Shown here: positions 1 to 60,080 of the stretch, one piece after another | How the letters are laid out: each line of letters starts with the position of its first letter | Numbering within the stretch: the stretch's first letter is position 1 | NCBI GenBank assembly: GCA_964628035.1 | Contig: CAZVPI010000013.1 | Location: 3,251-67,250, forward strand | Length of the DNA stretch: 64,000 nt | Reading direction: 5' to 3' | From: an uncultured Clostridia bacterium | Lineage (GTDB): Bacteria; Acidobacteriota; Aminicenantia; UBA2199 | Made by a program: the position numbers and the translations under genes | Notes under the pieces: generated by a model | What the model saw: the letters and a program-made list of their open reading frames with translations, nothing else | Database searches by the model: none | Told to the model about the DNA's origin: nothing

Positions 1-2
1 AA

Positions 3-3000: not shown

Positions 3001-3359
3001 GCGACGTGGAGCCGCTGCGCCTGCCCATCGACCAGGCCATCCCCCTGGCGCTGATCATCAACGAGCTCCTGACCAACGCCCTGAAGCACGCCTTTCCCGA
3101 CGGACGGCCAGGCGAGATCCGTATCCGCCTGCGCTCCCTGCTGCCCCCGGATGCCGGTCAGTGCGAGCTGATCGTCGCCGACGACGGCGTCGGCCTGCCC
3201 ACGGGCTTCGATCCCGGCGAGCAGAAGCACCTGGGCCTGCTGCTGATCGCCATGCTAGCCAGGCAGATCCGCGGCACCCTGGCCTGCGAGCAGGACAACG
3301 GCGCCCGCTTCCGCATCCGCTTCCCGCTCCAGGAAAGAAATGGAGAGCACCATGGTTGA
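3..3359 (+). CDS. Hybrid signal-transduction protein: N-terminal receiver (REC), about six tandem PAS domains, HisKA_2-type histidine kinase core plus HATPase_c. The 5' end touches the window edge.
   Basis: REC motif LRVLILEDSAADAEL...LILADYTLPG...IIVTG. Repeated PAS blocks with D..GR....N patterns. H-box EIHHRVKNNLQVISGLLTLQ is typical of HisKA_2. ATP-lid motifs (DDGVGLP...G.GL) follow. The ATG at 3 may not be the true start. Confidence 0.85.
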   Translation: MKKREAGKEKKKSLKKKATKGQNKAGKASEPLRVLILEDSAADAELMERQLRREKTAYRFLRAETRAGFLKGLKKFKPALILADYTLPGFDAVRALALARKQDPLLPFIIVTGSIGEEKAVACLRAGADDYLLKDRLGRLGEAMRQALERSRQRGESAAMQETLVASEELLRAFINSSTDMAFLKDARFRLLVANQALCRFFGRTQEEILGRTDHQLMEPKAAARCRRSDRLALKEGGIVVQEETVGGRVFETRKFPVQLADGSRGVGAYIRDITENRKLEAAIRQRADEWIATFDSIRDPIALFDAKGTVHRCNRAFALLSGKPFKQIIGRPCHLFAAAAGASCQFLRRALKSHRPLRAEVELAGRWFELAIDPLSGAANKFQGVVLAMKDVSERRRTEDERCRLSLAVEQSPTAVIITDPEGRIEFVNSKFSELTGYAPAEVLGKNPRLLKSGDTPAGEYRRLWRTIRRGGTWRGEFHNRRKDGSLYWERVAISPVLDGRGRINHYVAVKEDVTQQKRTNDSLRESENRFAAFFRSNPGPIAITRLDDHRILDVNEAWQNVTGYSRDEAIGRTPTELALWPEPAARQRIVDAVRAGASVHNLEINIQRKDGETRRILMSADRIVVGGSACMITMALDISQRKRAEDSLREMNEIFRQFLRYNPLYVFIKDENIRSVFLSDNYERMLGRPLTEIIGKTMDELFPSALSRQMIEDDKGILRDGAVREFQEELHGRIYSTIKFPIIIDGKAKYLAGYTMDITERTRAEDLLRERDQLLQNLSAQIPGMIYTFLRRPDGSYALPYCSNIIREIFGIAPQDVCEDATPIFAAIYPEDLPGTVSSIEKSARDMSLWQHEFRVQAPGQPPSWIWARSQPFHLADGSILWYGFIADITERKQAEERLAASLKEKEILLKEIHHRVKNNLQVISGLLTLQAGQTDDPRLARLVQESQSRIWTMALIHQTLYQSGDLAAIEMAEYVRTLAGNLISSQARVAMPPSCRCDVEPLRLPIDQAIPLALIINELLTNALKHAFPDGRPGEIRIRLRSLLPPDAGQCELIVADDGVGLPTGFDPGEQKHLGLLLIAMLARQIRGTLACEQDNGARFRIRFPLQERNGEHHG

Positions 3360-6300
3360 CGGGCGGCTGCGCGTCCTGCTGCTGGAGGACAACCCGGCCG
3401 ACGCCGAACTGGTCGAGCACGAACTGCGCCGGGGCAACCTGGAGGCGGACGTGCGCCTGACAACGGGCAAGCGCGAATTCGCCAAAGCCCTGAAGGACTT
3501 CCAACCCGACCTCATCCTCGCCGACTACAACGTGCCCGGCTTCTCTGGCCTGGACACGCTGGCCATGGCGCGGTCAGTAGCGCCGCAGGCGCCGTTCCTG
3601 TTCGTGTCGGGCTCGATCCGCGAGGAGCTGGCCATCGAGTCGCTCGCCCAGGGGGCCTCGGACTACATCTTCAAGAGCAACCTGGAGCGCCTGGTCCCGG
3701 CCGTGCGCCGCGTGCTGGCCGCCGCCGATCTGCAGCGTCGGAACCAGATCACGGAAAGAATGCTGCGCGAGAGCGAGACGAAATACCGCTCGCTGGTAGC
3801 GCAAAGCCCCGACGGCATCTTCATCGCCGACCTGAACGGGCGCTTCCTGTCGGTGAACCCGGCCATCTGCGCCACTCTGGGCTACCGCGAGGACGAGCTG
3901 CTGGGACGCAGCATCTGGGACATCATTCCGGCCGCCTACCGCCCGCTGCACGAACAAAGGCTGGCCGGCATTCTGCGCGGCAAGGAGCAGCGGGAAGCGG
4001 CGGAATATCTCGTAAAAGGCCGGGAGGGCGAGGAGCATGCCGTCGCCATCCTGTCGGCCCCGTTTTACAAGGACGGCGCCCTGATCGGCTTCCAGGGGAT
4101 TGCCCGCGACATCACCGAAAGGAAGAAGATGGAGGACCGCCTGCGCGAGTCCGAGGAGTATTACCGCACGCTGGTGGAAACCTCCCCCGACGCCATTGTC
4201 ATCGTCGACGCCGGGGGGCGGATCACGTACGCCTCACGGCGGGCCTACGGACTCTTCGGCGTCCCGGCCGGCGACGACATCCGCGGGACCTCCATCCTCA
4301 ACTTCGTCCAGGAGCAGGAAGCCCGCGCCGTGGAGGAGAGGCTGGCCGCGATCCTGTCCGGCCTTGAGCTCCCCGAGGTCCGCGAATACCGGCTGCTGCG
4401 CCGGGACCGCCGGCCGTTCTGGGGAGAAGTCGCCTCCTCCCCGCTCCAGAACGCCAAGGGGCACCGGACCGGGCTGCTGCTCGTCTGCCGCGACGTCAGC
4501 CAGCGCAGGGACACCGAGCTCAAGCTGCAGCAGGCGCTGGCCGAGGCGCAGCGCCTGCGCCAGGCGCTGGACCAGGTGCCGGTCCAAGTCTACATGAAGG
4601 ACCTGTAATCGCGCTACGTCTACGCCAACCAGCAGACCCTCAAGCTCTTCGGCTGCTCCGCCCTGGAGCTGGCCGGGAAGAGCGACCAGGACTTCTTCCC
4701 CCCCGAGACCGCGCGCCTGCTCCGCGACGTGGACCGCCGGGTGTTCGCCGGCGAATCGACGGTCGAGGAGATCGCGGTGCCGGACCCGCACAAGGGGGAA
4801 ACGCTCTATCACGAGGTCAAGACGCCGATCTACGCCGACCCGGATTCCAAGCGGATCACCGGCCTGCTGGGGATCTCCACCGACATCACCGAACGCAGGC
4901 GCTACGTCGAGGCGCTGCGCGAGAGCGAGCGCAAATACCGGCTGATCGCCGACAACACCGCCGAGACCATCACGGTGATGGACATGGGGCTGCGCTTCAC
5001 CTATGTCAGTCCCGCCATCGCCCGCCTACGGGGCTTCACGGTCGAGGAGGCCATGAAGCAGTCCCTGGAACAGGTCCTGGCGCCCGATTCGCTGGCCCTC
5101 GTGCGGCAGGTCCTGCAGGAGGAGCTGGGCCGAGAGGAAGCCGGCAGCGGAAGTCCCCACCGCAGCCGGACCCTCGAACTCCAGGAGCGCCACAAGGACG
5201 GCCGGCTCATCTGGGTCGAGAACTCCATCTCCATCCTCCGCGACGCCCAGGGAGCGCCCATCGGCTTCCTTGCCGTCTCCAAGGACGTCACCGAGCGCAA
5301 GCGGGCCGAGGAGCAGATCCGCTACCAGGCCGACCTGCTGCAGCGGGTGAGCGACGCCATCATCGCCACCGATCGCGAGGGGCGCATCCAGGTATGGAAT
5401 GCGGCGGCCCAGCGCATTTACGGCTGGACCGCCAGCGAAGCGATCGGCCGGAACTTTCATGAGCTGCTCGCCCCGGAGTACTTCACCCAGAGCCGGGAGG
5501 AAGTCGCCGGCAAGCTGGCCCGCGACGGGGCCTGGTCGGGCGAGCTCAGCCACCGCTTATGCGACGGCCGGCGCATCCAGGTCCACAGCACCATCACACT
5601 CCTGAGGGACTCCTTCGGCGCGGAAAGCGGCCGGGTTTCGATCAATCACGACATCAGTGAGCGCCTGCGGGCCGAAGCGGCGCTGCGCCACAGCGAGAAT
5701 CTTTTAAGCAAGATCTTCGACATACTGCCCATAGGCCTCTGGCTAGCCGATGGCCAGGGCCGGCTGGTGCGCAGCAACCGGGCCGGGCGCGAGATCTGGG
5801 GGGCCGAACCGCTGGTCGGCGCCGGCGACTACGGCGTGTTCAGGGCCCGCCGGCTGCCCGGGGGGGAAGAGATCGCGCCCGAGGACTGGGCGCTGGCCCA
5901 TTCCATCCGAGAAAGGATCACCGTTACCGACGAGATGCTCGAGATCGACACCTTCGACGGCCAGAAAAAAACCATCTTGAACTACACGGCGCCGGTGCTC
6001 GACGAGGAGGGCCGCGTGGAAGCGGCCATCGTCGTCAACCTCGACATCAGCGCCCGCAGGCAGGCGGAGGAGAGCATCCGCGCCTCGCTGCGGGAGAAGG
6101 ATGTTCTGCTGCAAGAGATCCATCACCGCGTCAAGAACAACCTGCAGATCGTCTCCGGCCTGCTGACCCTGCAGGCCGGATCTGTCGCGGATCCGGCCGT
6201 TGAGGAAATCCTCCGCTCCAGCCAGGACCGCATCCGCTCCATCGCCCTGGTGCACGAAAAGCTGTACCGCTCGCACAACCTGGCGGAAATCGCCTTCGAT

Positions 6301-6783
6301 GAGTACCTGCGCTCACTGGCCCACGAACTTCTCATCTCTCAAGGAATCGAGAGCAGCCGCATCCAGGTCCGCTTCGACACCGAGCCCATCCTGCTGGCCA
6401 TCGACAAGGCGATCCCGCTGGGTCTGATCGTCAATGAGCTTCTGACCAACTCCATCAAACACGCATTCACCAACGGAGGCTGCGGAACGATCCGCATCGG
6501 CTTGCGCGGCCGGAGGGAATTCCATTTTTCCGGCGTCAAAACCGATAGCGGCACGCTGTACCGCTGCTCCGCATACGAACTGTCCATCGAGGACGACGGC
6601 GTCGGGATGAGGCTTCCCGGCCCGGCCGCCCCCGCGAAATCATTGGGCATGCAACTGGTGACCATGCTCGCCAGCCAACTCCGCGCGGAACTGAAGGTTG
6701 AGAGGGGGCCGGGCACGCGCTTCATACTCAACCTGCCGGGACTGCCCGGCGCCCCCGACCCCGGCAAGACCCGGAACGGATAG
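3340..6783 (+). pseudogene. REC - PAS array - HisKA_2 kinase - HATPase_c gene interrupted by an in-frame TAA at 4606-4608. The ORF track splits it into 3340..4608 and 4729..6783, both in frame 1.
   Basis: Both pieces are in the same reading frame. The stop sits in the middle of a PAS core (MKDL*SRYVYANQQTLKLFG) and PAS-like coding continues across it. The downstream piece retains an intact H-box EIHHRVKNNLQIVSGLLTLQ and an ATPase domain. Alternative start at 3352 (MVDGRL), which has a GGAGAG RBS 4 nt upstream. Confidence 0.7.
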
Positions 6784-6793
6784 GAGAGGAACC

Positions 6794-9043
6794 ATGGCCA
6801 AATCCCGGATCCTGATCGTAGAGGATGAGGCGATCATCGCCTCGGTCATCGCCTCGGCGCTGCGCAAGTTCGACTACGAGGTGGTCGACATCCTCGACAA
6901 CGGCCCCGACGCGGTGGCCGTCGCGCTGGAGAAGCGTCCTGACCTGCTGCTGATGGACATCCGCATCCACGGCGACATGGACGGCATCAGCGTCGTCGAG
7001 CAGGTGCAGCGCCAGGCTGATATCCCGGTCATCTACCTCACTGCCTACGCCGACGACTCCACCCTGGAACGGGCCAAGCGCACAAAGCCCTACGGCTACA
7101 TCCCCAAACCCTTCCAGGAGATCGAGCTGCGCACCTCCATCGAAATGGCGCTGTACAAGCACGGCTTCGAACTGAAGTTGCGCGAGAGCGAAGCGCGCTT
7201 CCGCTCTCTGTTCGAGAACTCCCAGGACGTCATCTACATCAACGACCGCGACGGAGCGATGACAGAGATGAATCCGGCCGGATTGGCGCTGTTCGGATTC
7301 ACCCGCGAGGAGATCACTGGCGCCCAGGTGGATTTCCTGTATCAGGATCCCGCTGACCGACGCGCCTTCCTGGACGAGGTCCGCAAAAGGGAGCGGGTGA
7401 AGGACTACGAGATCCGCCTGCACAACAAGCAGGGCGAGCCCATCCTGGGACTGGTCACGGCCAATGTCATGCGCGACTCGAACGGCGGCTTTTCCGGTAT
7501 CCAGGGCATCATCCGCGACATCACCGAGAGGCGCAAGCGCGAGGAGACGCTACTTCTTCTGCAGACGGCCATTGACGCCTCCAGCGAGGCGGTGCTCATC
7601 ACCGACAACCGGGGAGCGATCGTCTACGGCAATGCCGCGGTGGAGACCATGACCGGCTATCCTCCCGTCGAGTACCTCGGCATGAACTTCAGCGAACTCG
7701 GCACCCGGATCGATTTTCCGGACGAGAAGATTCGCGAGATGTGGCAACGGATCCAGGGCGGACACTCCTGGAGCGGCGAGTTCCTCAAGCGCCGTAAGGA
7801 CGGTTCGATCTATCACCAGCGGACCATGATCTCGCCGGTGTGCACTGCCGACGGCCCGCCCAGCCACTACGTGAGCATCGCCTCCGACATCACCCGCGAG
7901 AAGAAACTCGAGGAGCAGATGCTGCAGGCGGCCAAGATGGACTCACTGGGGATGCTGGCCAGCGGCATTGCCCACGATTTCAACAACTATCTGGCCATCA
8001 TCAACGGCTACTCGGAGATGCTGCTTGCCGAGAACGAGGGCGGCAAGGACGCCGAGAACCTGAAGATCATCCTGCAAACGGGGAAAAGCGCCTCCAAGCT
8101 GGTGTCCAAGATCCTGGGCTTCAGCCGCCGCCAGGCGCCGGCGCCCGCCGTCCTGGAGGTGAACGCACTTCTAGTCGAGTTGGAACGCATGCTGCGCCGG
8201 CTGTTGGGCGAACGCGTCGAATTCCGCCTCGACCTCGCCCCCGATGCCGGCCGCATCTTCATGGACCCAGGCCAGCTCGAGCAGGCGCTCATTAACCTGG
8301 TCATCAATGCCCGCGACGCGATGCCCCAGGGCGGCACGCTGCGGCTGGCCTCGGCGTTTGTCCGGCTCGACGAGCAGGCCACCGCCCAGCACCCAGGGCT
8401 GAGCGCCGGCGACTATGCGGAGATATGCGTCGCCGACAATGGCGTCGGCATGGAGCCGCAGGTGCTGGCGCGCATCTTTGAGCCCTTCTTCACCACCAAG
8501 CCGGCCGGCGAGGGGACGGGGCTGGGCCTGGCCCTGGTGTTCGGCATCATCCATCAGAACGGCGGCTCCGTGTGGGTCGACAGCAAGCCGGGGAAAGGGT
8601 CGACCTTCCACGTCCTGCTCCCGCAATCGTTCGGCAGAGAGATCAGCGAGCCGGAGCACCGTCCCGGACGTCGTTTTGACGGCCGCATGGTGCTGCTCAT
8701 CGAGGACGAACCGAGCCTCCGCCAGTTTCTTCACGCCATCCTGGAGACGCTGGGCCTGCGGGTGTGTGAGGCTGGTGACGGCGAACTGGGGCTGAAGACC
8801 GCCGAAGGGATGCCTCATCTTGACCTGCTGTTCTGCGACGTTGTACTGCCCGGCCTCTCGGGCGTCGAGGTGGCCGAGCGCATCCGCAAAATCCATCCTC
8901 AGGCCGCCGTGATTCTCAGCTCGGGCCAGGGAGAAAATTACCTGAAGCGCGCCGGCCTCGACGTGGACAAGGTTCACTTCCTCCCCAAGCCCAGCTCGCG
9001 CCGGGCGATCGAGAAGGCGATCGCCGAGGCGCTGGGTGAATGA
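6794..9043 (+). CDS. Hybrid sensor histidine kinase: REC - PAS - PAS - HisKA (classical H-box) - HATPase_c - C-terminal REC.
   Basis: ATG at 6794 preceded by GGAGAGG. N-terminal REC (RILIVEDEAIIAS...LLLMDIRI). H-box LASGIAHDFNNYLAIINGY. N/G1/G2 boxes (NLVINARDAM, DNGVGM, GTGLGLALV). Second REC RMVLLIEDEPSLRQ...LLFCDVVLPG. Confidence 0.85.
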   Translation: MAKSRILIVEDEAIIASVIASALRKFDYEVVDILDNGPDAVAVALEKRPDLLLMDIRIHGDMDGISVVEQVQRQADIPVIYLTAYADDSTLERAKRTKPYGYIPKPFQEIELRTSIEMALYKHGFELKLRESEARFRSLFENSQDVIYINDRDGAMTEMNPAGLALFGFTREEITGAQVDFLYQDPADRRAFLDEVRKRERVKDYEIRLHNKQGEPILGLVTANVMRDSNGGFSGIQGIIRDITERRKREETLLLLQTAIDASSEAVLITDNRGAIVYGNAAVETMTGYPPVEYLGMNFSELGTRIDFPDEKIREMWQRIQGGHSWSGEFLKRRKDGSIYHQRTMISPVCTADGPPSHYVSIASDITREKKLEEQMLQAAKMDSLGMLASGIAHDFNNYLAIINGYSEMLLAENEGGKDAENLKIILQTGKSASKLVSKILGFSRRQAPAPAVLEVNALLVELERMLRRLLGERVEFRLDLAPDAGRIFMDPGQLEQALINLVINARDAMPQGGTLRLASAFVRLDEQATAQHPGLSAGDYAEICVADNGVGMEPQVLARIFEPFFTTKPAGEGTGLGLALVFGIIHQNGGSVWVDSKPGKGSTFHVLLPQSFGREISEPEHRPGRRFDGRMVLLIEDEPSLRQFLHAILETLGLRVCEAGDGELGLKTAEGMPHLDLLFCDVVLPGLSGVEVAERIRKIHPQAAVILSSGQGENYLKRAGLDVDKVHFLPKPSSRRAIEKAIAEALGE

Positions 9044-9107
9044 CCGCGGCTCGGCCCATGGGTTCCCTAGCGCGTCCAGCCCAGCCACCTGGTCGGCCGG
9101 ACGCCGA

Positions 9108-9614
9108 TCAGATCCCGGTCAGGCTGACCTCTTTTCCCATGATCCTGACGATGCCGTAGGTGATCCCGGCCGTGACGCCGGCAGCCGGGACCCGGCCGCA
9201 GGAAATGACCAAGAAGCATGCCGGCGAGCTGCAACGGATCTGGCAACCGGGTACGTTCGAAGGCTTGGGCAGAGTGAAACGAGCCATCTGTCTCCGGGAT
9301 GCTAGAATGATCAGTGCATCGACATGGTTCTCCTTGCCGCCCCAGTGGATGCCGACGGCATTGGCGCCGGGCAGGATGTATCCGATCCGATGGGAGCCGT
9401 TATTCCCGGTCGCCTCCGACTGACAGATGCGACCGGATGCCGTCTCACGCAACAGTACGATGGCATCCGTCAACGGCCTCCTGCCGTCGTCCCCATTGAC
9501 CAATCCGCTCAGTCTGCCGGGGCGGTCATCGTTGGGGGAGGCCGCGGATACTCCGGCCAGGGAAAGCGCCAGAACGATCATGGCACCGGCCAACCGGCCT
9601 GCGGAACGATCCAT
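9108..9614 (-). CDS. Hypothetical secreted protein (N-terminal signal peptide), the last gene of the PilT-containing gene string.
   Basis: Hydrophobic N-terminus MDRSAGRLAGAMIVLALSLAGVSAAS. GGAG 8 nt upstream of the ATG. Lies 30 nt downstream of the pilT stop. No recognisable domain. Confidence 0.4.
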   Translation of the reverse strand: MDRSAGRLAGAMIVLALSLAGVSAASPNDDRPGRLSGLVNGDDGRRPLTDAIVLLRETASGRICQSEATGNNGSHRIGYILPGANAVGIHWGGKENHVDALIILASRRQMARFTLPKPSNVPGCQIRCSSPACFLVISCGRVPAAGVTAGITYGIVRIMGKEVSLTGI

Positions 9615-9645
9615 GCTTCATCTCCGCGGCCTTGTTCGATCTTCA

Positions 9646-11028
9646 TCAGGCGGCCAGCACGCCTCGCGAACGCAGGCGCGCCTTCAGCGCTTCGCGGTCG
9701 ATGGCCTTGGACAGCGCCTCATCGACGGTCACCCCGCCCTTCTCGACCAGGTCGGCCAGCGATTCGTTCATCATGAGGTTGCCCAGCGCCTTGCCGGTCT
9801 GCATCATGGCCGGGATCTGGAACGTCTTGCCCTCGCGGATCAGGTTGGCCACGGCGGCATTGACCACCATCACCTCGTAGGCCGCCGCCCGGCCGCCCGC
9901 CTCCCTGCGGCACAGCATCTGCGAGACGACGCCGACCAGGGCGTCGGCCAGCATGGTGCGGATCTGATTCTGCTGGTCGGCGGGGAACTGGTCGATGATG
10001 CGGTCGACGGTGCCGCAGGCGGTCGATGTGTGCAGCGTGCCCAGTACCAGGTGGCCGGTCACGGCCATCTCCACGGCGATGGCGATGGTCTCCAGGTCAC
10101 GCATCTCGCCTACCAAGATGACGTCGGGGTCTTCGCGCAGGGCGGCGCGCAGCGCCTTCTTGAACGATACGGTGTGCGTGCCCACCTCGCGCTGGTTGAC
10201 CAGCGAGCGCTTGTTGGCATGGATGAACTCCACCGGGTCCTCGACGGTGATGATGTGGCCGGCGCGCGTCTCGTTGATATGGTCGATCAGCGCCGCCAGG
10301 GTGGTCGACTTGCCCGAGCCGGTCGGCCCGGTGACCAGGATCAGCCCCTTGGGCAGCCGGCAGAGGTCAAGCACGGCCTGGGGGACGTTCAGATCGGCGG
10401 CCGGCACGATGCGCGAGGGGATGACGCGCAGCACGGCGCCCAGGCCGCGCTGGTCGCGGAAGACGTTGACGCGGAAGCGCGCCAGCCCGGCGACCTCGTG
10501 GGCGAAGTCGGTGTCTTGCGCCGTGGCGAACTCCTGGCGGTTGCGTTCGGGCATGACGGCCCAGATCTGCTCGCGCAGCCAGGCCTCGTTCACCGCGGGC
10601 AATCCGGCCATCGGCGTCATGTCGCCGTCGATGCGCAGCACCGGCGCCGCACCGCAGGTCAGGTGCAAATCCGACGCCCGGCTCTCGACCATGGCCCGCA
10701 GCAGTCGCTCCAGGCCATGCAGCTCGGCCGATGCCGGCATCCGCGGGATCAGCGCCTCGGGGAGGGCCGATGCGATCTGCAGGCGGATGCGGCCGTCCTC
10801 ATTGGAGCGGCCGATCTCCTGGCCCATGTAGGTCAGCCACTCCTTGCCGGCGAAGACCTCCTCCAGTTCGGAGTCGATCTTGCGGATGAGGTCGTCGTTC
10901 AGCGGCGTCCGCATCAGGTAGCCCTTTCGGGCTTCGCGCCAGATGAAGGGCGGCTCGTCGCTGCCGATGATGAGGTGCTCGCCTTTGTACTTCACCAGGG
11001 CTTCCAGGAGCTGGCGGGCGGAGTTCAC
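9646..11028 (-). CDS. pilT: PilT-family type IV pilus retraction ATPase with an N-terminal extension of about 95 aa.
   Basis: Walker A GPTGSGKSTT, Asp box DVILVGEMRDLETI, His box GHLVLGTLHTSTA, and the PilT signature AYEVMVVNAAVANLIREGK. Conserved core starts around SDLHLTCGAAPVLRIDGDM. Start overlaps the stop of the upstream gene (ATGA). Confidence 0.85.
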   Translation of the reverse strand: MNSARQLLEALVKYKGEHLIIGSDEPPFIWREARKGYLMRTPLNDDLIRKIDSELEEVFAGKEWLTYMGQEIGRSNEDGRIRLQIASALPEALIPRMPASAELHGLERLLRAMVESRASDLHLTCGAAPVLRIDGDMTPMAGLPAVNEAWLREQIWAVMPERNRQEFATAQDTDFAHEVAGLARFRVNVFRDQRGLGAVLRVIPSRIVPAADLNVPQAVLDLCRLPKGLILVTGPTGSGKSTTLAALIDHINETRAGHIITVEDPVEFIHANKRSLVNQREVGTHTVSFKKALRAALREDPDVILVGEMRDLETIAIAVEMAVTGHLVLGTLHTSTACGTVDRIIDQFPADQQNQIRTMLADALVGVVSQMLCRREAGGRAAAYEVMVVNAAVANLIREGKTFQIPAMMQTGKALGNLMMNESLADLVEKGGVTVDEALSKAIDREALKARLRSRGVLAA

Positions 11029-11531
11029 AGGCCCTCCACGCGCGCGATGAAGCGCTTGTTGACGAGCACACGGAAGTGGTTTTCGTCGAGGAAGACCGCG
11101 AAACGCCCGGGCTCGTTCAGCAGATCGATGGGCCGCGCACGCCAGGCATGGCTCGGTCCGCAGGCATGAAGTACCTGCGAGCCACCGTTCTCCAGGACCA
11201 GGCGCAGTGGTTTCCCCGCGCCCTCGCCGACCGGCGCTGCTTCGCGCACCATCATCACCTGGTTCACGTGGACGATGAGAAACTCGCCGCTGGCCTTCTC
11301 GCGCAGCGGCAGGAACGCGTTCTGCGAGTCCAGGTACTCGGCAAGGCTCTCCTCGCCATGGCGCTGGGGCGAATAGTAGCTGAGGAAGAAAACGCAGGCC
11401 CGCGGCCGCTTATCGTCGAACAGGAAAGTCACCTCGGCTTCGACCTCACGCTTGGGGACACGCAGCTCGTTGTCCTGGTTCAGCTCTGTTCTCGGCCCCG
11501 TCTCGACCGCCAGATTCTGCAGCAGCTTCAT
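11025..11531 (-). CDS. Hypothetical protein, translationally coupled to pilT.
   Basis: ATG at 11531 preceded by AGGAGGG (MKLLQNLAV...). The ORF-track start at 11561 is a GTG overlapping the upstream gene. No recognisable domain. Confidence 0.5.
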   Translation of the reverse strand: MKLLQNLAVETGPRTELNQDNELRVPKREVEAEVTFLFDDKRPRACVFFLSYYSPQRHGEESLAEYLDSQNAFLPLREKASGEFLIVHVNQVMMVREAAPVGEGAGKPLRLVLENGGSQVLHACGPSHAWRARPIDLLNEPGRFAVFLDENHFRVLVNKRFIARVEGL

Positions 11532-11557
11532 CTTGCCCTCCTGCGCTTGGGGGATCA

Positions 11558-12373
11558 TCACTCCGAGGCAACCAGGGCGTAAGCCTCGGCCTCCTTCCAG
11601 TACTTGTCATAGGACTGGAACTTGGCCAGGGTCAGATCGTTGACCAAGCCGAGCGCCTGGGCGCGGAAACCTCGGAACGACAGCAGCTTCGTCCGTCCTT
11701 CCTCGCGGCGATGATTCTTGAGGAACGGTTCAGGGGAGACGGACATCAGCTGCAGACTCTGCAGCACATGCACCATCTCGTGGTTGAACACGCAGTCGGG
11801 CTTGCCGGCGACCACGGTGGGGAACATGCCGATGGCCCAGCCGCGCACACCTTCGGCCAGCGGCTCGTCGGCCTCGAAGCCCAGGATGCCGCCGCGCAGC
11901 TTGACGCGGTCAGCTTTGGCCAAGGAAAGCGCGATGCTGAGCGCGTCGCGGGGCGACACGGAGAAGTTCAGCAGCGCATGCGGCCGCCGGGCCAGGGGGG
12001 TGGCCAGCTCGACGCGCACCAGCGGCAGGGCGACGCCGATGTAGGAAAGGGGCCCTTCGCCCGACGCCACATTCTCGGCCACCGATGCCGAGAGGTTGGC
12101 CAGCAGCACGCCGCCAAAGGTGCTTCCAGAGGCGACCATCTTTTTGGCCTGGTAGAAGCCATAGCCCGAGGCCGCCCCGAAAGCCAGCATCCTGGCGGCA
12201 TCCCGGATATTGCGCACCTTGCCCTGGAGCAAACCGCTCGCCAACGTGCTCACGCTGCTGCCGATCACATTGCCCAGGGCAACGGTCTTCTCGGCCACCG
12301 CCTCAGCCCTGGCCACGGGAATGAAAACAAACATCGTCATTAGGATTACTATCGCCCATGCCCTCTTCTTCAT
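11558..12373 (-). CDS. Secreted protein with a C-terminal HExxH motif (possible zinc-metallopeptidase-like); first gene downstream of the sigma-54 promoter.
   Basis: ATG at 12373 preceded by GAGGAGG. Signal peptide MKKRAWAIVILMTMFVFIPVARA. Motif CVFNHEMVHVLQ. No secure family assignment. Confidence 0.55.
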   Translation of the reverse strand: MKKRAWAIVILMTMFVFIPVARAEAVAEKTVALGNVIGSSVSTLASGLLQGKVRNIRDAARMLAFGAASGYGFYQAKKMVASGSTFGGVLLANLSASVAENVASGEGPLSYIGVALPLVRVELATPLARRPHALLNFSVSPRDALSIALSLAKADRVKLRGGILGFEADEPLAEGVRGWAIGMFPTVVAGKPDCVFNHEMVHVLQSLQLMSVSPEPFLKNHRREEGRTKLLSFRGFRAQALGLVNDLTLAKFQSYDKYWKEAEAYALVASE

Positions 12374-12406
12374 CGCTGACCTCCTCAGGTTTGTCATGCC
12401 TGGAGG

Positions 12407-12423
12407 TGCAGAGGCAGTGCCAA
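12407..12423 (-). promoter_or_regulatory. Sigma-54 (-24/-12) promoter TTGGCAC-tgcct-CTGCA reading toward the 12373 gene.
   Basis: Reverse complement of 12407-12423 is TTGGCACTGCCTCTGCA, which fits the consensus YTGGCAC-N5-TTGCW, with GG and GC correctly spaced. It lies about 35 nt upstream of the ATG and immediately downstream of a sigma-54 activator gene. The -24 half is part of a perfect 14-bp palindrome GTGCCAATTGGCAC (12417-12430). Confidence 0.55.
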
Positions 12424-12562
12424 TTGGCACGATAGCTAAAAAGGCCCTGTTGAAGGCATTTCCCGTGAATTTGCCAAGAAAGGGCTTCTAGGGCGGGCAA
12501 GAGACCCAGGTTGCAGGGCCAGAAAATTTCTCTGCGCAGACTACCTATAAAACAAAAACTAT

Positions 12563-12575
12563 TTGCATTCTGCAA
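12563..12575. promoter_or_regulatory. Inverted repeat TTGCA-ttc-TGCAA about 150 bp upstream of the sigma-54 promoter; candidate enhancer (UAS) for the adjacent activator.
   Basis: Seen in the AT-rich stretch 12500-12640. Position relative to the -24/-12 element is typical of NtrC-family enhancers. Confidence 0.3.
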
Positions 12576-12644
12576 CTTTTGTCTTTTGGAAACGAATATC
12601 TCAGGGGCTGGCAGATGTCGAAACGCAAAGAGTAAGTTTCGACT

Positions 12645-14066
12645 TCAGGCCTTCTTCTTGCCGCGTACCAAGCGCTTGTTGAGGGCCTGGCGGGTGATGC
12701 CCAGGAGCTGGGCGGCAATTCCCTGGTTGCCCTTTGCCTGCTCCAGCGCCCGTCGCACCAGGAATTCCTCGGCCTGCTTCAGGGTCGGCTGGCTGGCGAG
12801 GAAGGCATCGGGGGCAAGATCGGCGCCAGGGGTCCCCCCGGGGGATGTCCGGCTGGCCAGCCGGTCGCCAACGACGGCACGGAAGCTCTCCATGGATAGA
12901 ACGCCGCTACGGTGGCGGGAAACAGCATCGGCAACCATGGTCTGCAGCTCGCGGACATTCCCCGGAAAATCGTAGGCGGACAGCAACCCCAGAAGTTCGG
13001 GGGGGGGGGTTGGCACGCGCTTACGCAGCAGGCGGGCCGACTCCTGGAGGAAATGGCCCAGCAGCAAGGGGAGATCCTCCCTGCGCTCGCGCAAAGGCGG
13101 CACCGCGATAACGTGGGTGTTGAGGCGGAAATAGAGATCGTTGCGGAAGGCCCCCTGCTCGACCCGGCGTCGGAGATCATGGTTGGTCGAGCAAATGAGG
13201 CGCGCATTGGTCTTCCTCGGCTGATCCATGCCCAGTGTGTAATACTCCTTCTCTTGGATCAGGCGTAGGAGCTTGACCTGCGAGGTCGGGCTCAAGTCGC
13301 CGATCTCGTCGAGGAAAAGCGTCCCGTCCTGGGCCTGGGAGATCAGGCCCTCGCGGCTGCTTTCGGCTCCGGTGAAGGCCCCCTTTTTATGCCCGAACAG
13401 GGTGTCGGAAAACATGTTGTCATCGAGGCCGGCGACGTTCACGGCGACGAAGGGCCGCGCCGGGTCGCCGGCGAGGTGGATGGCGCGGGCGATCAGCTCC
13501 TTGCCGGTTCCGGTCTCGCCGGTGATCAGCGCCGGGAAAGGCGAAGCGGCGATGACCTCGACGTACTTGAACAGGGCCAGCATCCTGCGGCTGCCGGCGA
13601 CCAGGTGGGCGAAGGCGCCGGGCTTGGCCAAGCCGTCGGCCAGGAGGTGGCGGGTCAACATTGACACCTGGTCCTGCAGCCGGGCGATTTCCAGCATCCG
13701 CTGCAGACTGGAGACCAGGCGGCTGCGCTCCACCGGTTTGACCAGGTAGTCGGAGGCCCCCAGTTTCATGCAGTCGACTGCGGTCCCGATGTCGTCAACG
13801 CCGGTGACCATGAGGACGGGCACCTCGGGGAATTCCTGTTTGACCTGGGCCAGCAGGTCCCGGCCGGAGAGGAACGGCATGTTCACGTCGGCAAGAACAG
13901 CCTGCACCCGGTTTTCGCGAAGGAACGGCAGCACGCGGCGGCTGTCGTCCAGGGTGACAAGCGGCTCGATGCCGGCCGCGCGCAACATGCCTCCATACAA
14001 GAGCAGGACTTGGGTCTCGTCGTCGACCAGCAGCACCGGCAACTGGTCGCTTCGTTTCTCTTCCAT
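12645..14066 (-). CDS. Sigma-54-dependent response regulator (NtrC family): REC - AAA+ sigma-54 activation domain - Fis-type HTH.
   Basis: ATG at 14066 with GGGAG RBS. REC: VLLVDDE...LADVNMP. Walker A GETGTGKE. GAFTGA motif present (KKGAFTGAES), diagnostic for sigma-54 contact. C-terminal HTH QGIAAQLLGITRQALNKRL. Confidence 0.9.
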   Translation of the reverse strand: MEEKRSDQLPVLLVDDETQVLLLYGGMLRAAGIEPLVTLDDSRRVLPFLRENRVQAVLADVNMPFLSGRDLLAQVKQEFPEVPVLMVTGVDDIGTAVDCMKLGASDYLVKPVERSRLVSSLQRMLEIARLQDQVSMLTRHLLADGLAKPGAFAHLVAGSRRMLALFKYVEVIAASPFPALITGETGTGKELIARAIHLAGDPARPFVAVNVAGLDDNMFSDTLFGHKKGAFTGAESSREGLISQAQDGTLFLDEIGDLSPTSQVKLLRLIQEKEYYTLGMDQPRKTNARLICSTNHDLRRRVEQGAFRNDLYFRLNTHVIAVPPLRERREDLPLLLGHFLQESARLLRKRVPTPPPELLGLLSAYDFPGNVRELQTMVADAVSRHRSGVLSMESFRAVVGDRLASRTSPGGTPGADLAPDAFLASQPTLKQAEEFLVRRALEQAKGNQGIAAQLLGITRQALNKRLVRGKKKA

Positions 14067-14176
14067 ATCAACTCCCGTTGCCATGATACTTTTTTGCCGG
14101 GCCGCTGTCAAACGCCCCTTATCTATGCCAAAGACGGGATCCCGGAACAATGCGCCGGTCTATGAGTGGGGAAAAA

Positions 14177-14194
14177 GCACATGTGCGTTTCGCA
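14177..14194. promoter_or_regulatory. Overlapping palindromes GCACATGTGC and TGCG-ttt-CGCA in the divergent intergenic region between the activator and the membrane kinase.
   Basis: Perfect 10-bp palindrome at 14177-14186, overlapping an inverted repeat at 14184-14194. Candidate operator or autoregulatory site. Confidence 0.3.
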
Positions 14195-14235
14195 TCCCCC
14201 CGAGGCCGGCCGCCGTGATCTCCCTGGTAAAAAGG

Positions 14236-14264
14236 TTGACTTAGCCGCAAGGGCAATGATATTC
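14236..14264 (+). promoter_or_regulatory. Candidate sigma-70 promoter (TTGACT -N17- ATATTC) for the membrane kinase gene.
   Basis: TTGACT at 14236-14241, A/T-rich -10 at 14259-14264, ATG at 14282. Confidence 0.35.
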
Positions 14265-14281
14265 TGTGTATTGGGGCGTGA

Positions 14282-15895
14282 ATGAACAAAGGCTTTGTCA
14301 TGCAATTGATCTTCAATGCCTCTCTGCTGCTCTCCCTGGCCGCCCTCTATGACCTGCTCGTTCTCCGCTGGCAGAGCAGACAGTCTTTGTTGCGCCAGAT
14401 CTCGGTTGGCATTGTTGTCGGCACCGTAGGGGTGATCGTCATGTTGGCTTCCTGGAGACTGGAGCCGGGGATTATTTTCGACACCCGCTCGATCCTGCTC
14501 GGGATGTCCGGCCTTTTCTTCGGGACGGTGCCTTCTGTGACCGCTATGGTGATCACGGCCGCTTATCGAGGTCTTCTGGGCGGTGCCGCCGCCGGCATGG
14601 GGATCGCGGTCATCCTCGCCTCCGGAGCCATCGGCATGGCCTGGAGGTATCGCAGCCGGCGACGTCTCGCCGCTATCACCTGGCATGAGCTCCTAGGTAT
14701 CGGGATGATCATCCATCTGGTGATGCTGACGTGCACCCTCTTTCTCCCCGGCCCCATCCGCTGGCGCGTGCTGCAGAATACAGCCCTGCCGGTGCTGGTG
14801 ATCTACCCCGCCGTGACCGCCATGCTCGGCAAGCTGATGGCCGGGCATCTGAAGAGGGAGATCACCAGCCAGCAGCTTCGCGAGAGCGAGGCGAAATTCC
14901 AGAACCTGGCCACCGTGTCACCGGTGGGGATCTTCCGAACCGATGCCGACGGCCGGACCACCTACGTGAATCCGATGTGGTGCGAGATCTCCGGCTTGGA
15001 CGCCGACGCCGCCCTGGGCGACGGCTGGCTGCAGGCGGTCCACCCGTCCGACCGGGAACTGCTGCGCAGGAACTGGGAGGATGCCGCCCGGGCGCACAGG
15101 CCATCCATGGCCGATTACCGTTTCCTGCATGCCGACAGGAAAGTCGTCTGGGTGATGGGCCGGGCAACTCCGGAAAAGGACAGCATGGGCCAGGTTACGG
15201 GATATGTAGGGACGATCACCGACATCAGCGAGCGGAAACAAGCCGAGGAAATCGTCCGCACCTCACTGAAAGAAAAGGAGATCCTGCTGAAGGAGGTCCA
15301 TCACCGTGTCAAGAACAACCTGATGACCATCATCGGCCTGATTAAGATGCAGAATGAAAAGACGGGGGGATCCCCCGAGAATACGCTGCTTCTGGAGCTG
15401 GAGGGGAGGATACGCTCCATGGCCATGATCCATGAAAGCCTGTACAAGTCCGACAACCTGGCCAGGATCGATCTGCGGAACTACATCAAGGACATGGTCC
15501 TGCACATCCAGGCCCAATTTAAGACGGCATACAATATCCGCCTGGAGATGCGTGCCGTGGGCATCGACGTCGGCCTGGACATCGCGGTTCCCTATGGATT
15601 GATCCTGAACGAGTTGATCACCAATGCCTTCAAGCACGCCTTTCCGGATGACCGCGTCGCCGAGGGCGACGGCGCGCCCGAGGTGAAAATCATCACCTCC
15701 GCCCAGGACGGCATGCTGATCCTTACCGTGGCCGACAACGGCGTAGGATTTCCGGTCAGCGGGGATCTAGGGGAAACGCAGACCCTGGGCCTCAACCTTG
15801 TCCGCATGTTGAGCCAGCAGCTCCGGGGCCGCGTGGAAAGCATCGGGAAAACCGGGACAGTCATCCGCGTGCAATTCCCCCTGCCTGTGAAATAG
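14282..15895 (+). CDS. Membrane sensor histidine kinase: N-terminal multi-TM domain (about 5-6 helices) - PAS - HisKA_2 - HATPase_c.
   Basis: Hydrophobic N-terminal 190 aa. PAS block (VGIFRTDADGRTTYVNPMW...). H-box EVHHRVKNNLMTIIGLIKMQ. ATPase motifs (LNELITNAFKHAF, DNGVGFP, TLGLNLV). Divergent from the sigma-54 activator gene. Alternative start at 14300 (MQLIF). Confidence 0.8.
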   Translation: MNKGFVMQLIFNASLLLSLAALYDLLVLRWQSRQSLLRQISVGIVVGTVGVIVMLASWRLEPGIIFDTRSILLGMSGLFFGTVPSVTAMVITAAYRGLLGGAAAGMGIAVILASGAIGMAWRYRSRRRLAAITWHELLGIGMIIHLVMLTCTLFLPGPIRWRVLQNTALPVLVIYPAVTAMLGKLMAGHLKREITSQQLRESEAKFQNLATVSPVGIFRTDADGRTTYVNPMWCEISGLDADAALGDGWLQAVHPSDRELLRRNWEDAARAHRPSMADYRFLHADRKVVWVMGRATPEKDSMGQVTGYVGTITDISERKQAEEIVRTSLKEKEILLKEVHHRVKNNLMTIIGLIKMQNEKTGGSPENTLLLELEGRIRSMAMIHESLYKSDNLARIDLRNYIKDMVLHIQAQFKTAYNIRLEMRAVGIDVGLDIAVPYGLILNELITNAFKHAFPDDRVAEGDGAPEVKIITSAQDGMLILTVADNGVGFPVSGDLGETQTLGLNLVRMLSQQLRGRVESIGKTGTVIRVQFPLPVK

Positions 15896-16092
15896 TCTAT
15901 TAATTTCCCGTCTGGATCGGCGACCAGGAAGCAGAGTATTCTGATGCGGCGGAACATTAAACTGTTTTTCGCGCTCCTTTACGCGATTTGCCACTCCACA
16001 ACCGGAAATGATAAAATCTTATCGTACGACCGCCACAGGCCGGAAAGAGCCGCCCGCCGCAGCAACCGAGTTTTGCCGGCGCAGGAGGGATC

Positions 16093-16497
16093 ATGTACGT
16101 GTTCGACCGCATGGACGAGAAGCTGGTCCGGGCGGTGATCGAGACCATCCCCGCCGAGATCACCGTCATCGACGCCAACGACGAGGTGGTGGCCTGGAAC
16201 AAGGGGGACACGCGCCTGTTCCACCGCCCGCAGAGCAGCATGGGGCTGAATTTCCGCAAGTGCCACCCGGCGACCAGCCTGGGCAAGGTGGAGCAGATCG
16301 TGGCCGAGATGAAGGCCGGCGACCGCGACAAGGCGCGCTTCTGGATCCAGGCCAAGGTCGGCGCTGAGCGCCACCTGGTGCTGATCGAGTTTTTCGCCCT
16401 GCGCGGCGAGGGCGGCGAGTACCTCGGCTGCCTGGAGGTCACGCAGGACCTGGAAGAGGCGCGGCGTCTCGAGGGCGAGCGGCGGCTGCTCGATTGA
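16093..16497 (+). CDS. Small single-domain PAS protein (134 aa) with a conserved Cys-His-Pro motif; paralog of 58789..59130.
   Basis: AGGAGGGA RBS. PAS-like ETIPAEITVIDANDEVVAWNKG...FRKCHPATS...GEYLGCLEVTQDL. Aligns with the second small PAS protein, including the CHP and G..[VL]E[VF] positions. Confidence 0.7.
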   Translation: MYVFDRMDEKLVRAVIETIPAEITVIDANDEVVAWNKGDTRLFHRPQSSMGLNFRKCHPATSLGKVEQIVAEMKAGDRDKARFWIQAKVGAERHLVLIEFFALRGEGGEYLGCLEVTQDLEEARRLEGERRLLD

Positions 16498-16523
16498 GCC
16501 CGCAGAGGCAAAGCGGGGATCTC

Positions 16524-17312
16524 ATGAAGACGGGCATGATCGCCAGGGTGACGCTGCTGGCCCTCCTTTTCGGAAGTCTGATCGGCGCCGGCAGGGAAAG
16601 GGCCGCCGGGCCGGCCGCCAACGGCCTGTGGCGCAAGGCGGTCGAGATCTACCGCCGCAACAGCGACTGGTATCCAGGCCGGGTGGCCATCCTGTCGGAG
16701 ATGCTGAACCGCCGCGGCGAGCCCTATTCGGTGACCGAAATGTACTTCACCCTGCGCCTCGACAACCAGGGCAAGATCCAGGCCGACCTGGAGCGGGCGC
16801 TGAAGAACGGCGAGGACACGACCGAGAAGGTGCGCTCCAAGGTGACCATCCGCGCCCCCGAGGAAGGAATGGAGCCCGGCGACGACAACACCTTCTCCGT
16901 TTCCCTCTCCGACAGCCCGTTCGACCCCGAGCGCCAGCACGACGTGACCGTCAGCGCCGCTCCGGAAAGGGTGCCATTGTTCGGCTGCCGCTGCAGACGC
17001 TTCGATTTCACCTACCGCACGCGCATCGTGCGCAAGGGCGAGCCGGTGGACCTGACGTGGCGCGGCATGGCCTGGCTGGAAGAAGGAAGCGGCATGCCGG
17101 TCAAGCTGGAGTTCACCCTCGATCCCCTGCCCAAGCTGCTGCGCAGCCTGTGGAGCATCTACCTCTTCGACACGGCGAGTCCCGAGCGCTGGGTGGTGAA
17201 CAAGGTCTCCCTCACCGGCCACGGCGGCTTCCTCTTCATCATCAAGCGCTTCCGCACCACCACCACCTTCAGCGACTACCGCCTGGCCCCCGCGGCACAG
17301 GCGTCCGAATGA
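16524..17312 (+). CDS. Hypothetical secreted protein (signal peptide), translationally coupled to arfB.
   Basis: Starts MKTGMIARVTLLALLFGSLIGAG. Its stop TGA (17310-17312) overlaps the arfB ATG (17309-17311). The large antisense ORF 15957..17222 is rejected. Confidence 0.55.
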   Translation: MKTGMIARVTLLALLFGSLIGAGRERAAGPAANGLWRKAVEIYRRNSDWYPGRVAILSEMLNRRGEPYSVTEMYFTLRLDNQGKIQADLERALKNGEDTTEKVRSKVTIRAPEEGMEPGDDNTFSVSLSDSPFDPERQHDVTVSAAPERVPLFGCRCRRFDFTYRTRIVRKGEPVDLTWRGMAWLEEGSGMPVKLEFTLDPLPKLLRSLWSIYLFDTASPERWVVNKVSLTGHGGFLFIIKRFRTTTTFSDYRLAPAAQASE

Positions 17313-17752
17313 CGGCCAGGCGCTGGGACGTCGGTTCCGGCATCGCCATCCAGGAAGAGGAGCTGGCCTTCGAGTTCGTGCGCGCCTCCGGCCCCGGCGG
17401 CCAGAACGTGAACAAGGTGGCGACGGCGGTCAAGCTCTACTTCGACGTCGAGCGCTCCCCCGCGCTGCCGTTGCCGGTGAAGCGCCGGTTGCGCCAGCTC
17501 GCCGGCCGGCGGCTCAGCCGCGCCGGCGTGCTGGTCATCGACGCCCGCCGCTTCCGCACCCAGGAAGCCAACCGCCAGGACGCCCTGGAGCGGCTGCTGG
17601 CCCTCCTGCGCCAGGCCGCCGTCGCTCCCAAGCCGAGGCGCCCGACCCGGCCCAGCGCCGCCGCCAGGGCGCGGCGGCTGGAGGCCAAGCGGCGCCGCGG
17701 CATTGTCAAGCAATCCAGGCGCGGCACGCGTCAGGGCGCGGAGCCGGTTTGA
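17309..17752 (+). CDS. arfB: Alternative ribosome-rescue factor ArfB (peptidyl-tRNA hydrolase, YaeJ family).
   Basis: GGQ motif in FVRASGPGGQNVNKVATAV. Basic C-terminal tail (KPRRPTRPSAAARARRLEAKRRRGIVKQSRRG), which is typical of ArfB. 147 aa. Confidence 0.85.
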   Translation: MTARRWDVGSGIAIQEEELAFEFVRASGPGGQNVNKVATAVKLYFDVERSPALPLPVKRRLRQLAGRRLSRAGVLVIDARRFRTQEANRQDALERLLALLRQAAVAPKPRRPTRPSAAARARRLEAKRRRGIVKQSRRGTRQGAEPV

Positions 17753-60043: not shown

Positions 60044-60080
60044 TTCTTGCTAATGTCTAACGTCTAACGTCTACCGTCTG
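60044..60080 (-). repeat. Inverted (minus-strand) heptamer array AGACGGT AGACGTT AGACGTT AGACATT AGCAAGAAAAAAA that includes the stop codon of the Ser/Thr kinase gene.
   Basis: Reverse complement of 60044-60080. The last codons TCA GAC GGT AGA CGT TAG of the kinase are built from the repeat. Confidence 0.75.

Follow-up and report, generated by a model that had tools for sequence, protein, structure and literature searches.

The operon described here lies on the minus strand of contig CAZVPI010000013.1, in a 64-kb stretch (hereafter the window) from an uncultured bacterium of the Aminicenantia. It codes for an exported protein with an HExxH motif (X), a small cytoplasmic beta-barrel protein (Y) and a paralogue of the pilus retraction ATPase PilT, and the gene of an NtrC-family activator stands directly upstream of X, as it does in every Aminicenantes locus with enough sequence. 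As judged from sequence, this is a lineage-specific sigma-54 operon, found only in uncultured Candidatus Aminicenantes, to which PilT is an accessory; we favour this as the best overall explanation, with somewhat better than even confidence. The comparison drew on 55 fetched loci (labelled L001 to L055), and the window proteins were searched against all six-frame open reading frames (ORFs). The order activator-X-Y was constant in every Aminicenantes locus with enough sequence, and identical copies of the operon proteins sit on dozens of metagenome contigs.

The sigma-54 promoter and its enhancer sites

The activator gene is separated from X by a spacer that a previous reading of the same DNA, made from the letters without database searches (the sequence-only reading), had described as AT-rich and 270 bp long; it measures 271 bp and has 48% GC against 67% in the window. 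The near-consensus -24/-12 promoter that the same reading had placed there, TTGGCAC-N5-CTGCA at 12423..12407, is borne out by our results. The pattern TGGCACNNNNNYTGCW (TGGCAC-N5-YTGCW) has a single match in the 64 kb, at 12422..12407 of the minus strand, with 0.13 expected, and the element stands 34 nt upstream of the X start codon; the predicted start of transcription is near 12397. All 18 related loci inspected carry TGG-N9-TGC at the same distance from the X start codon, with flanking bases that vary among loci (TTGGAACGATCCATGCA, TTGGTACGCACCGTGCA, ATGGCAGTCGTCGTGCA and others). A kept core within variable flanks is the pattern expected from selection on a -24/-12 promoter.

Alignment of the spacer from 14 loci revealed two more invariant blocks, GACAAAAGTTGC and its reverse complement GCAACTTTTGTC. 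The exact 12-mer is present in 29 fetched loci, only in the activator-X spacer and nowhere else in those loci, and in 12 of them both exact copies occur, inverted and 68-69 bp apart from start to start. In the window the distal copy (12583..12572) is perfect and is the sole exact copy in 64 kb, and the proximal site GCAACCTGGGTC (12514..12503), which aligns with the GCAACTTTTGTC of the relatives, has 3 mismatches and lies 69 bp start to start from the distal one. The two inverted 12-mers, located ~160 and ~90 bp upstream of the -24/-12 promoter, are the putative binding sites expected for the activator. An inverted repeat TTGCA-N3-TGCAA reported earlier from the spacer is conserved in part, since its first half is kept as the right end of the longer distal enhancer site and its second half is not. 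The window has the -24 element (TGGCAC) closest to consensus of all loci, though its proximal enhancer copy is imperfect, and an ATATAG-like block at ~12545..12550 of the minus strand (alignment columns ~131-136), midway between the enhancers, is kept in most loci.

Between the proximal enhancer and the -24 element, a GC stem is followed by TTTTT, and in the 14-locus alignment the position and the stem of this hairpin are kept with a changed sequence; it may bend the DNA or act as a weak terminator of the activator gene. In an Rfam scan of 9000..16500 all matches were at chance level, with no riboswitch in the spacer or the leader.

The palindromes to which the sequence-only reading had drawn attention fared less well. 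The perfect 14-bp palindrome GTGCCAATTGGCAC on the -24 half exists, but the window holds 12 such palindromes where 8.2 are expected, and none of the orthologous promoters has it; on both counts an operator role at the -24 element was rejected. In the divergent region between the activator and a sensor kinase gene, whose length of 215 bp was confirmed, the palindromes GCACATGTGC and TGCG-N3-CGCA are present, but they are no longer than 10 bp, their frequency is near chance (146 10-bp palindromes in the window against 107 expected) and they are not kept in the two other loci that bear this kinase, and we do not retain them as regulatory sites.

The activator had been described as a member of the NtrC family with a GAFTGA motif, and both the motif, read in the translation, and the domains agree: Sigma54_activat (PF00158) scores 192.5 bits, Response_reg 79.5, AAA_lid_14 64.7 and HTH_8 26.8. 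Its true start is the ATG at 14066, which gives 473 aa as in the orthologues (a longer ORF with a TTG start begins upstream of it). The activator gene has a promoter of its own, of the sigma-70 type, in which TTGACA and AAAAAGTAT(C/T)AT are invariant across 8 orthologous loci, even where the upstream neighbour is a different one. The -24/-12 element, the enhancer pair and this sigma-70 promoter are phylogenetic footprints across many Aminicenantes loci, by which the sigma-54 reading is strongly supported, and we are highly confident of the regulatory architecture as read here.

Many independent metagenome contigs (L001-L005, position 1) start at one point in the activator gene, at about residue 187, and contig L011 ends within the gene of the kinase with a 5TMR_LYT domain. 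Exact copies of the activator protein were found on 3 contigs and exact copies of X on 62. These contig breaks and copy numbers suggest polymorphism among strains, or else a repeat, in the region of the activator N-terminus and the kinase.

The family of the activator raises the question of what the operon responds to. Sigma-54 classically controls nitrogen assimilation, the best NCBIfam matches of the activator include NtrC and AtoC (all far below the equivalog cutoffs), and X is exported and carries HExxH; X could on these grounds be a nitrogen-scavenging secreted peptidase under NtrC-like control, with Y and PilT as unrelated co-transcribed passengers. However, glnA, glnB, amtB and ntrB are all missing from the neighbourhood, many other members of the family match the activator at least as closely as NtrC does and the X homologues of Thermoanaerobaculia have no sigma-54 promoter at all, and we regard nitrogen scavenging as very improbable indeed.

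The PilT paralogue and its repeated loss

By its profile matches the third protein of the operon is a bona fide PilT/PilU retraction-type ATPase. It matches TIGR01420 with 449.3 bits (cutoff 319.1) over residues 106-445 and PilT of P. aeruginosa (3jvu) with 349 bits over residues 109-443, a higher score than with PilU, GspE or PilB. Its core blocks, including GPTGSGKST and DPDVILVGEMRD, are invariant among 5 orthologues, as is N-L-I-R-E within the C-terminal AVANLIREGK. At 460 aa it exceeds the ~345-400 aa of typical two-domain PilT/PilU proteins, and residues 1-105 lie outside all profiles. The sequence-only reading was right about the family and about an N-terminal extension; the extension comes to ~105 residues where about 95 had been counted. 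It is kept in 4 orthologues of the X-Y-PilT clade, and a word-indexed homologue search returned a single close relative. Its residues 5-48 align in register with the start of the PilT N-terminal domain (hhalign, E = 0.14, probability 0.4%), a value at which an origin as a degenerate duplicate of that domain is not established.

The same reading had also proposed that the ATPase may power something other than a canonical pilus, having noted that pilin, PilB, PilC and secretin are missing. None of these four genes was found anywhere in the 64-kb window, as had been said, but the proposal itself is not supported by the related loci, in which, on several occasions, pilT was lost in whole or in part or acquired a nonsense codon with activator-X-Y intact. 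The gene is intact and overlaps Y in the window, L010, L015, L022 and L054, and is present at a contig end in L040, L044, L045, L047 and L055. In L051 and L052, from two independent metagenomes, the codon of the invariant E148 is replaced by TAG (6990..6992 in L051, the same allele in L052); the remaining pilT is 68% identical to that of the window, and the gene looks like a young pseudogene. L013 has an internal deletion of codons 51-397, L014, L016 and L046 retain a remnant of the first 36-41 codons only, and pilT is absent from L017, L018, L019, L020, L048, L050, L039 and L042. L014, with its remnant, and L015, with an intact gene, are closely related, and therefore at least some of the losses are recent and independent.

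The constancy of activator-X-Y, the occurrence of X alone in Thermoanaerobaculia and the repeated loss of pilT indicate that the conserved unit is activator-X-Y and that pilT is optional, which is hard to reconcile with an apparatus driven by this ATPase. We therefore consider, from this comparison of loci, that PilT probably serves as an accessory that the cell can do without, and does not drive a new device. It could be argued that X and Y join with the extended PilT in a new apparatus, self-contained and driven by ATP, that is not a type IV pilus but, for example, a machine for export or processing of X. One sigma-54 promoter is predicted to serve all three genes, the 64 kb hold no pil genes, the extension of PilT is kept in four orthologues and X and Y come from uncharacterised families. 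Against this stand not only the losses of pilT from loci in which X and Y persist, but also the solitary X of Thermoanaerobaculia beside unrelated housekeeping genes, the ordinary Sec signal peptide of X, for which no dedicated exporter is needed, the lack of any gene for a polytopic membrane platform, a secretin or a pilin-like protein in the operon, and an ATPase core whose similarity to canonical PilT is about that of other PilT proteins. Such an apparatus is very unlikely.

The same losses could be taken to mean that the pilT of the window is a decaying, functionless passenger and that X and Y are the only real cargo, the more so as the activator-X-Y core is universal in the clade and a nonsense allele occurs in relatives beside independent deletions. 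The ORF of the window, however, is full length, shares 70-77% identity with three other intact orthologues and has preserved its overlap with Y; with the invariant catalytic blocks, this indicates purifying selection where the gene is kept. Decay in the window is accordingly judged highly improbable, and an optional but functional accessory is the reading of pilT that we retain.

The operon had been called a self-contained module of five genes, translationally coupled downstream of the promoter (Table 1). Coupling is seen at one junction, where the GTG start of pilT and the TGA stop of Y share 4 nt (GTGA); X and Y are 26 nt apart, with a ribosome-binding site inside the gap, and PilT and the small ORF that follows it are 31 nt apart. 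In related genomes the activator-X-Y part of the five-gene arrangement recurs, pilT is variable and the small ORF is confined to the species. This last ORF exists and has the signal-peptide-like start that led it to be described as a small secreted protein, but only contigs of the same species (L001-L006) carry it, and ~40 related loci do not. Its C-terminal half is Cys-rich and of low complexity, and the ORF is probably a piece of a larger gene for a secreted protein, not a conserved member of the module. The label self-contained is thus only partly right, as the small ORF is species-specific and the divergent kinase occurs in 3 lineages only.

Table 1. Features of the operon and its flanks in the window
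Feature	Coordinates	Strand	Description or evidence
Activator	12645..14066	minus	NtrC-family enhancer-binding protein, REC - AAA+ (GAFTGA) - HTH_8, 473 aa, ATG start, MEEK
Activator promoter	14083..14111	minus	sigma-70-type TTGACA-17-TATCAT; 11/12 consensus matches, footprint across 8 loci
Activator-X spacer	12374..12644	minus	271 bp
Distal enhancer (upstream activating sequence, UAS) site GACAAAAGTTGC, putative	12572..12583	minus	invariant block, 14-locus alignment
Proximal enhancer site GCAACCTGGGTC, putative	12503..12514	minus	inverted distal copy, 3 mismatches
Short hairpin and T-run	12444..12457	minus	terminator scan flag; position and stem kept
Sigma-54 -24/-12 promoter TGGCACTGCCTCTGCA	12407..12422	minus	GG 12421-12420, GC 12409-12408
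X, exported 271-aa HExxH..Q protein	11558..12373	minus	invariant motif; orphan putative zinc peptidase
Y, cytoplasmic, 168 aa, two small beta-barrels, DUF6812-like	11025..11531	minus	sub-threshold PF20660, AlphaFold2 model
PilT-family hexameric ATPase paralogue, 460 aa, GTG start	9646..11028	minus	TIGR01420
Species-specific ORF, 168 aa	9108..9614	minus	without family match
Divergent sensor kinase 5TMR_LYT - PAS - HisKA_2 - HATPase	14282..15895	plus	Pfam domains
Convergent hybrid kinase REC - PAS - PAS - HisKA - HATPase - REC, 749 aa	6794..9043	plus	Pfam domains, gene call

The two uncharacterised families, X and Y

No Pfam, NCBIfam or PADLOC profile was matched above threshold by X, Y, residues 1-105 of the ATPase or the small ORF; NCBIfam gave no match for X, Y or the small ORF, PADLOC assigned none of these three to a defence system, and the PADLOC matches of PilT and the activator are generic ATPase or RtcR-type ones. 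X starts at 12373 behind a GAGGAGG ribosome-binding site and had been described as a signal-peptide protein with a HEMVH motif. Both features were found: the N-terminus runs from KKR through a hydrophobic stretch to ARA-EA, and the signal peptide is conserved in the family with its A-x-A cleavage site. Only this signal segment passes the Kyte-Doolittle threshold, and the N-terminal helices of X were rejected as membrane segments because nothing else in them is hydrophobic enough.

A word-indexed search found 73 homologues of X, none of them named, and the family counts 120 cluster representatives among 1.84 billion proteins, with members of similar length. The nearest named genomes with X are Candidatus Aminicenantes metagenome-assembled genomes (MAGs), at 64-71% identity. 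The remoter copies of Thermoanaerobaculia (~35%) stand beside methylmalonyl-CoA mutase and amine oxidase, without activator, Y, PilT or sigma-54 promoter. On the strength of these matches the window is assigned to an uncultured Aminicenantes bacterium of the Acidobacteriota. A tblastn search of X against plasmids gave no match, and X matches no pilin profile. L023, which is labelled as a Clostridia MAG, possibly through a binning error, carries two copies of X 2.6 kb apart.

Ten residues are invariant across 38 members of the family, down to 21% identity (N35, S97, N101, H198, E199, H202, Q205, E261, E263 and A264), and E261 and E263 are the invariant candidates for a third metal ligand. The AlphaFold2 model (predicted local distance difference test score, pLDDT, 82.5; predicted TM-score 0.83) has three N-terminal helices, a beta-sheet, the HExxH helix and C-terminal helices with the invariant glutamates, an order of secondary structure that, in the model, would be compatible with a minimal gluzincin. 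Profile searches of X against PDB sequences returned nothing below E = 1. The closest approach to a known family was PF13699 (DUF4157), an HExxH domain of unknown role (PMC8213781), which gave sub-threshold hits on the hairpin and HExxH helix of 5 of the 38 members, with a best E of 7e-4. In two distant members that were inspected the scores were 14 and 16 bits against a gathering score of 22, and the X of the window did not match PF13699 even at E <= 10. X is put forward as a putative exported zinc peptidase of an undescribed family, of which DUF4157 would be the nearest known relative without including X as a member.

Y has no signal peptide, and its ATG at 11531 is preceded by a GGAGGG ribosome-binding site. 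It reaches 21.6 bits with PF20660 (DUF6812; E = 2e-4, cutoff 27.1), and 12 homologues of Y (55-63% identity) carry a precomputed PF20660 match. The AlphaFold2 model (pLDDT 77) consists of a disordered N-terminus with an invariant LRVPKRE, followed by two five-stranded barrels, which as an internal repeat align in register at E = 0.045, a suggestive value only. The best PDB fold matches are tandem Tudor, KOW, Agenet or Hfq-like barrels, none of them significant (all E > 0.06); for one barrel, the best local match is Synechocystis Hfq, with a probability of 0.99 over 61 residues but E = 0.33. A literature search on DUF6812, and on Aminicenantes with pili or sigma-54, found nothing specific.

The 4-nt overlap of Y and pilT recurs in L010, L015, L022 and L054, and in L025 a homologue of Y (hhalign probability 99%) overlaps the start of pilT with X 5 kb away; wherever a genome has both genes, they overlap. 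This recurrence led to the proposal that Y acts with the PilT paralogue, and from the coupling of the genes we infer that Y may be an adaptor or regulator of it, possibly docking on its N-terminal extension. A related possibility is that Y is a second-messenger receptor, similar to PilZ in function with a different fold, which gates PilT on cyclic di-GMP (c-di-GMP), and that the operon is one output of a c-di-GMP switch by which cells change between an attached and a motile state. In L008 and L009 the position of Y after X is held by a genuine Zn-ribbon-PilZ protein (30 bits, cutoff 22.5), genes for REC-GGDEF, HD_5 (REC-HD_5) and Hpt-REC proteins flank X or Y-PilT in the divergent lineages L008 (3016..7599), L023 (31..4031) and L025 (6..7329), and the RVPKR within the invariant stretch just before the first barrel resembles RxxxR. 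These observations hint that the module may belong to a c-di-GMP-linked network of surface behaviour. Y itself, however, has no D/NxSxxG motif, neither Pfam nor hhalign against the PilZ protein of L008 (probability 0.2%) identifies it as a PilZ protein, and the 50 best PDB matches listed include no PilZ structure. The operon of the window has no c-di-GMP enzymes beside it, and with signalling genes packed so densely in these genomes, little can be concluded from adjacency. We consider a c-di-GMP receptor unlikely and keep to an adaptor or regulator role as the proposal for Y.

Signalling context, proposed function and comparison with known systems

The multi-TM PAS/HisKA_2 kinase that had been noted diverging from the activator was confirmed as 5TMR_LYT-PAS-HisKA_2-HATPase. 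It occurs only in the window, L014 and L015, and elsewhere a PAS_10 gene abuts the activator; the divergent kinase, a lineage-specific neighbour, is no more than a possible partner of the activator. A homologue of the convergent hybrid kinase follows the operon immediately, on the other strand, in all Aminicenantes loci that extend far enough, and this HisKA kinase is the more likely candidate partner than the sporadic HisKA_2 one. It is the last of four consecutive PAS-rich signalling proteins convergent to the operon (1..9043) and syntenic in all Aminicenantes loci, with the architectures REC-5xPAS-HisKA_2-HATPase, REC-PAS-PAS, PAS-HisKA_2-HATPase and hybrid REC-PAS-PAS-HisKA-HATPase-REC, and the four may work as a multi-step phosphorelay. 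Beyond the activator, on the other side, synteny is likewise conserved in Aminicenantes, with a PAS_10 protein (134 aa), a protein of ~270 aa without assigned function and an RF-1-domain (ArfB-like) protein, followed by MsrAB and UPRTase (16093..17752 in the window; also L008, L010 and L011).

Around the operon the window contains signalling kinases, housekeeping genes and the dcw cluster. At 60064..63258 of the minus strand, adjoining radical SAM and CsgG-like genes, a gene codes for a protein of 1064 aa in which Reg_prop/Y_Y_Y repeats accompany a Ser/Thr protein kinase domain. Perfect 16-bp GC-rich palindromes number 7 in the window (42128, 53965, 12849, 18203, 33704, 43993 and 45256, with CGCCTGCCGGCAGGCG occurring twice) against 2.1 expected from mononucleotide shuffles, an excess that is probably an effect of composition or dinucleotides.

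A working model follows the known behaviour of NtrC-family proteins. The activator would be made from its own conserved sigma-70 promoter, a sensor kinase would phosphorylate its receiver domain, and the phosphorylated activator would oligomerise on the two enhancer sites, where its ATPase would remodel the sigma-54 holoenzyme and allow transcription of X, Y and pilT. X, most likely a small zinc peptidase, would be exported through its Sec signal peptide to the periplasm or the extracellular space and, to go by its family, would cleave a substrate in the envelope or outside the cell. The PilT paralogue, again by family membership, would most likely be an inducible additional motor for retracting type IV pili whose genes lie elsewhere in the genome, and Y, from the coupling of the two genes, would modulate it. 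In combination, an exported protease and increased pilus retraction might alter the cell surface upon induction, for example to let the cell detach or to remodel the surface; this physiological role is speculative and we advance it only tentatively.

Several observations weigh against this explanation. Fold searches of X against PDB and viral structures returned no significant match, zincins included, so that X is without a detectable relative of known activity; the term peptidase comes from motif and topology, with Pfam hits that are sub-threshold. The evidence for the adaptor role of Y is the gene overlap, and Y is kept in genomes that lost pilT, from which it follows that Y also has a PilT-independent role or uses another ATPase. 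The pilus on which the ATPase would act is assumed, as the 64-kb window has no type IV pilus genes, and the link to c-di-GMP finds no counterpart in the window, where the signalling neighbours of the operon are PAS kinases only. Finally, pilT is split in 3 long-read MAGs (L007, L021 and L024), which may reflect errors of sequencing or assembly because neighbouring genes are split too.

A bolder version of the model would make Y a new adaptor, possibly a second-messenger receptor, that sits on the PilT extension and switches retraction on when the activator fires, and X the founder of an exported zincin family that remodels the surface. If true, this would be an undescribed wiring of a retraction motor into a sigma-54 and c-di-GMP circuit in an uncultured phylum, but we think it quite unlikely. 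Under the accessory-PilT explanation that we prefer, the significance of the operon lies elsewhere. The regulatory region, with its promoter, its enhancer pair at a fixed 68-69 bp and its activator promoter, is exceptionally well defined for an uncultured lineage, and searches for the regulon of the activator across Aminicenantes genomes could be modelled on it. The operon also ties two uncharacterised families, the exported HExxH family and DUF6812, to a well-understood motor, and this gives them a first testable context. The repeated loss of pilT amounts to a natural experiment, which indicates that the ATPase is not needed for the activity of X and Y; this argues against a new ATP-driven device, and it would be wrong to class the operon as a new secretion or pilus-like system. 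What is new is this combination of genes, the linkage of two uncharacterised families and the clade-specific extension of PilT.

Much of the rest is familiar. Orphan pilT paralogues encoded apart from pil clusters are common and well known, and sigma-54 operons controlled by an activator are familiar too (PMC5065972, PMC13584747). The PilT of the window shares with Geobacter PilT1-4, the PilT-like proteins of Myxococcus (PilU included) and Neisseria PilT2/PilU the PilT/PilU core, all ATPase motifs and NLIRE, and like these its gene lies away from a pil cluster (within 64 kb), is dispensable and is variably present. It differs from them in a conserved extension of ~105 aa without detectable homologue, in the translational coupling of its gene to a DUF6812-like barrel gene and in its predicted sigma-54 control alongside an exported HExxH protein.

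The activator has the REC-AAA+(GAFTGA)-Fis-type HTH architecture of NtrC, ZraR, AtoC and PilR, its gene adjoins the target operon, and paired upstream sites stand ~90-160 bp from a GG-N10-GC promoter, as expected in this family of enhancer-binding proteins. The targets, however, are two uncharacterised families and a pilT paralogue, not a pilin, nitrogen or metal gene, the site GACAAAAGTTGC is clade-specific and the adjacent kinase is of the HisKA_2 type and not conserved. The sequence-only reading had likened the module to PilS/PilR, the control system of type IVa pilins, and a receiver-domain sigma-54 activator beside a membrane kinase, with a gene of a type IV pilus family in the regulon, does recall it. 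The parallel fails in that the first gene codes for an HExxH protein and not a pilin, the kinase is 5TMR_LYT-PAS-HisKA_2 and not the PilS-type HisKA and is absent from most orthologous loci, and no pilin, PilB, PilC or secretin is near the operon.

Compared with DUF4157/eCIS_core (PF13699, 'PVC-metallopeptidase'), the X family shares an HExxHxxQ placed after a short beta-hairpin, and its 5 distant members match profile positions ~35-75. Unlike that domain, X is free-standing and Sec-exported with an N-terminal three-helix domain, is not the N-terminal module of a toxin and has no contractile injection system genes with it, and all hits of its family stay below the gathering score. Adaptors of pilus ATPases are known in PilZ-FimX-PilB of Xanthomonas and in Hfq, which binds PilB1 in cyanobacteria. 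Y resembles them as a small beta-barrel genetically tied to a pilus ATPase, and in one sister lineage a true PilZ protein replaces it, but Y is neither PilZ nor Sm/Hfq by sequence or by a significant fold score, and the resemblance is a lead from gene context.

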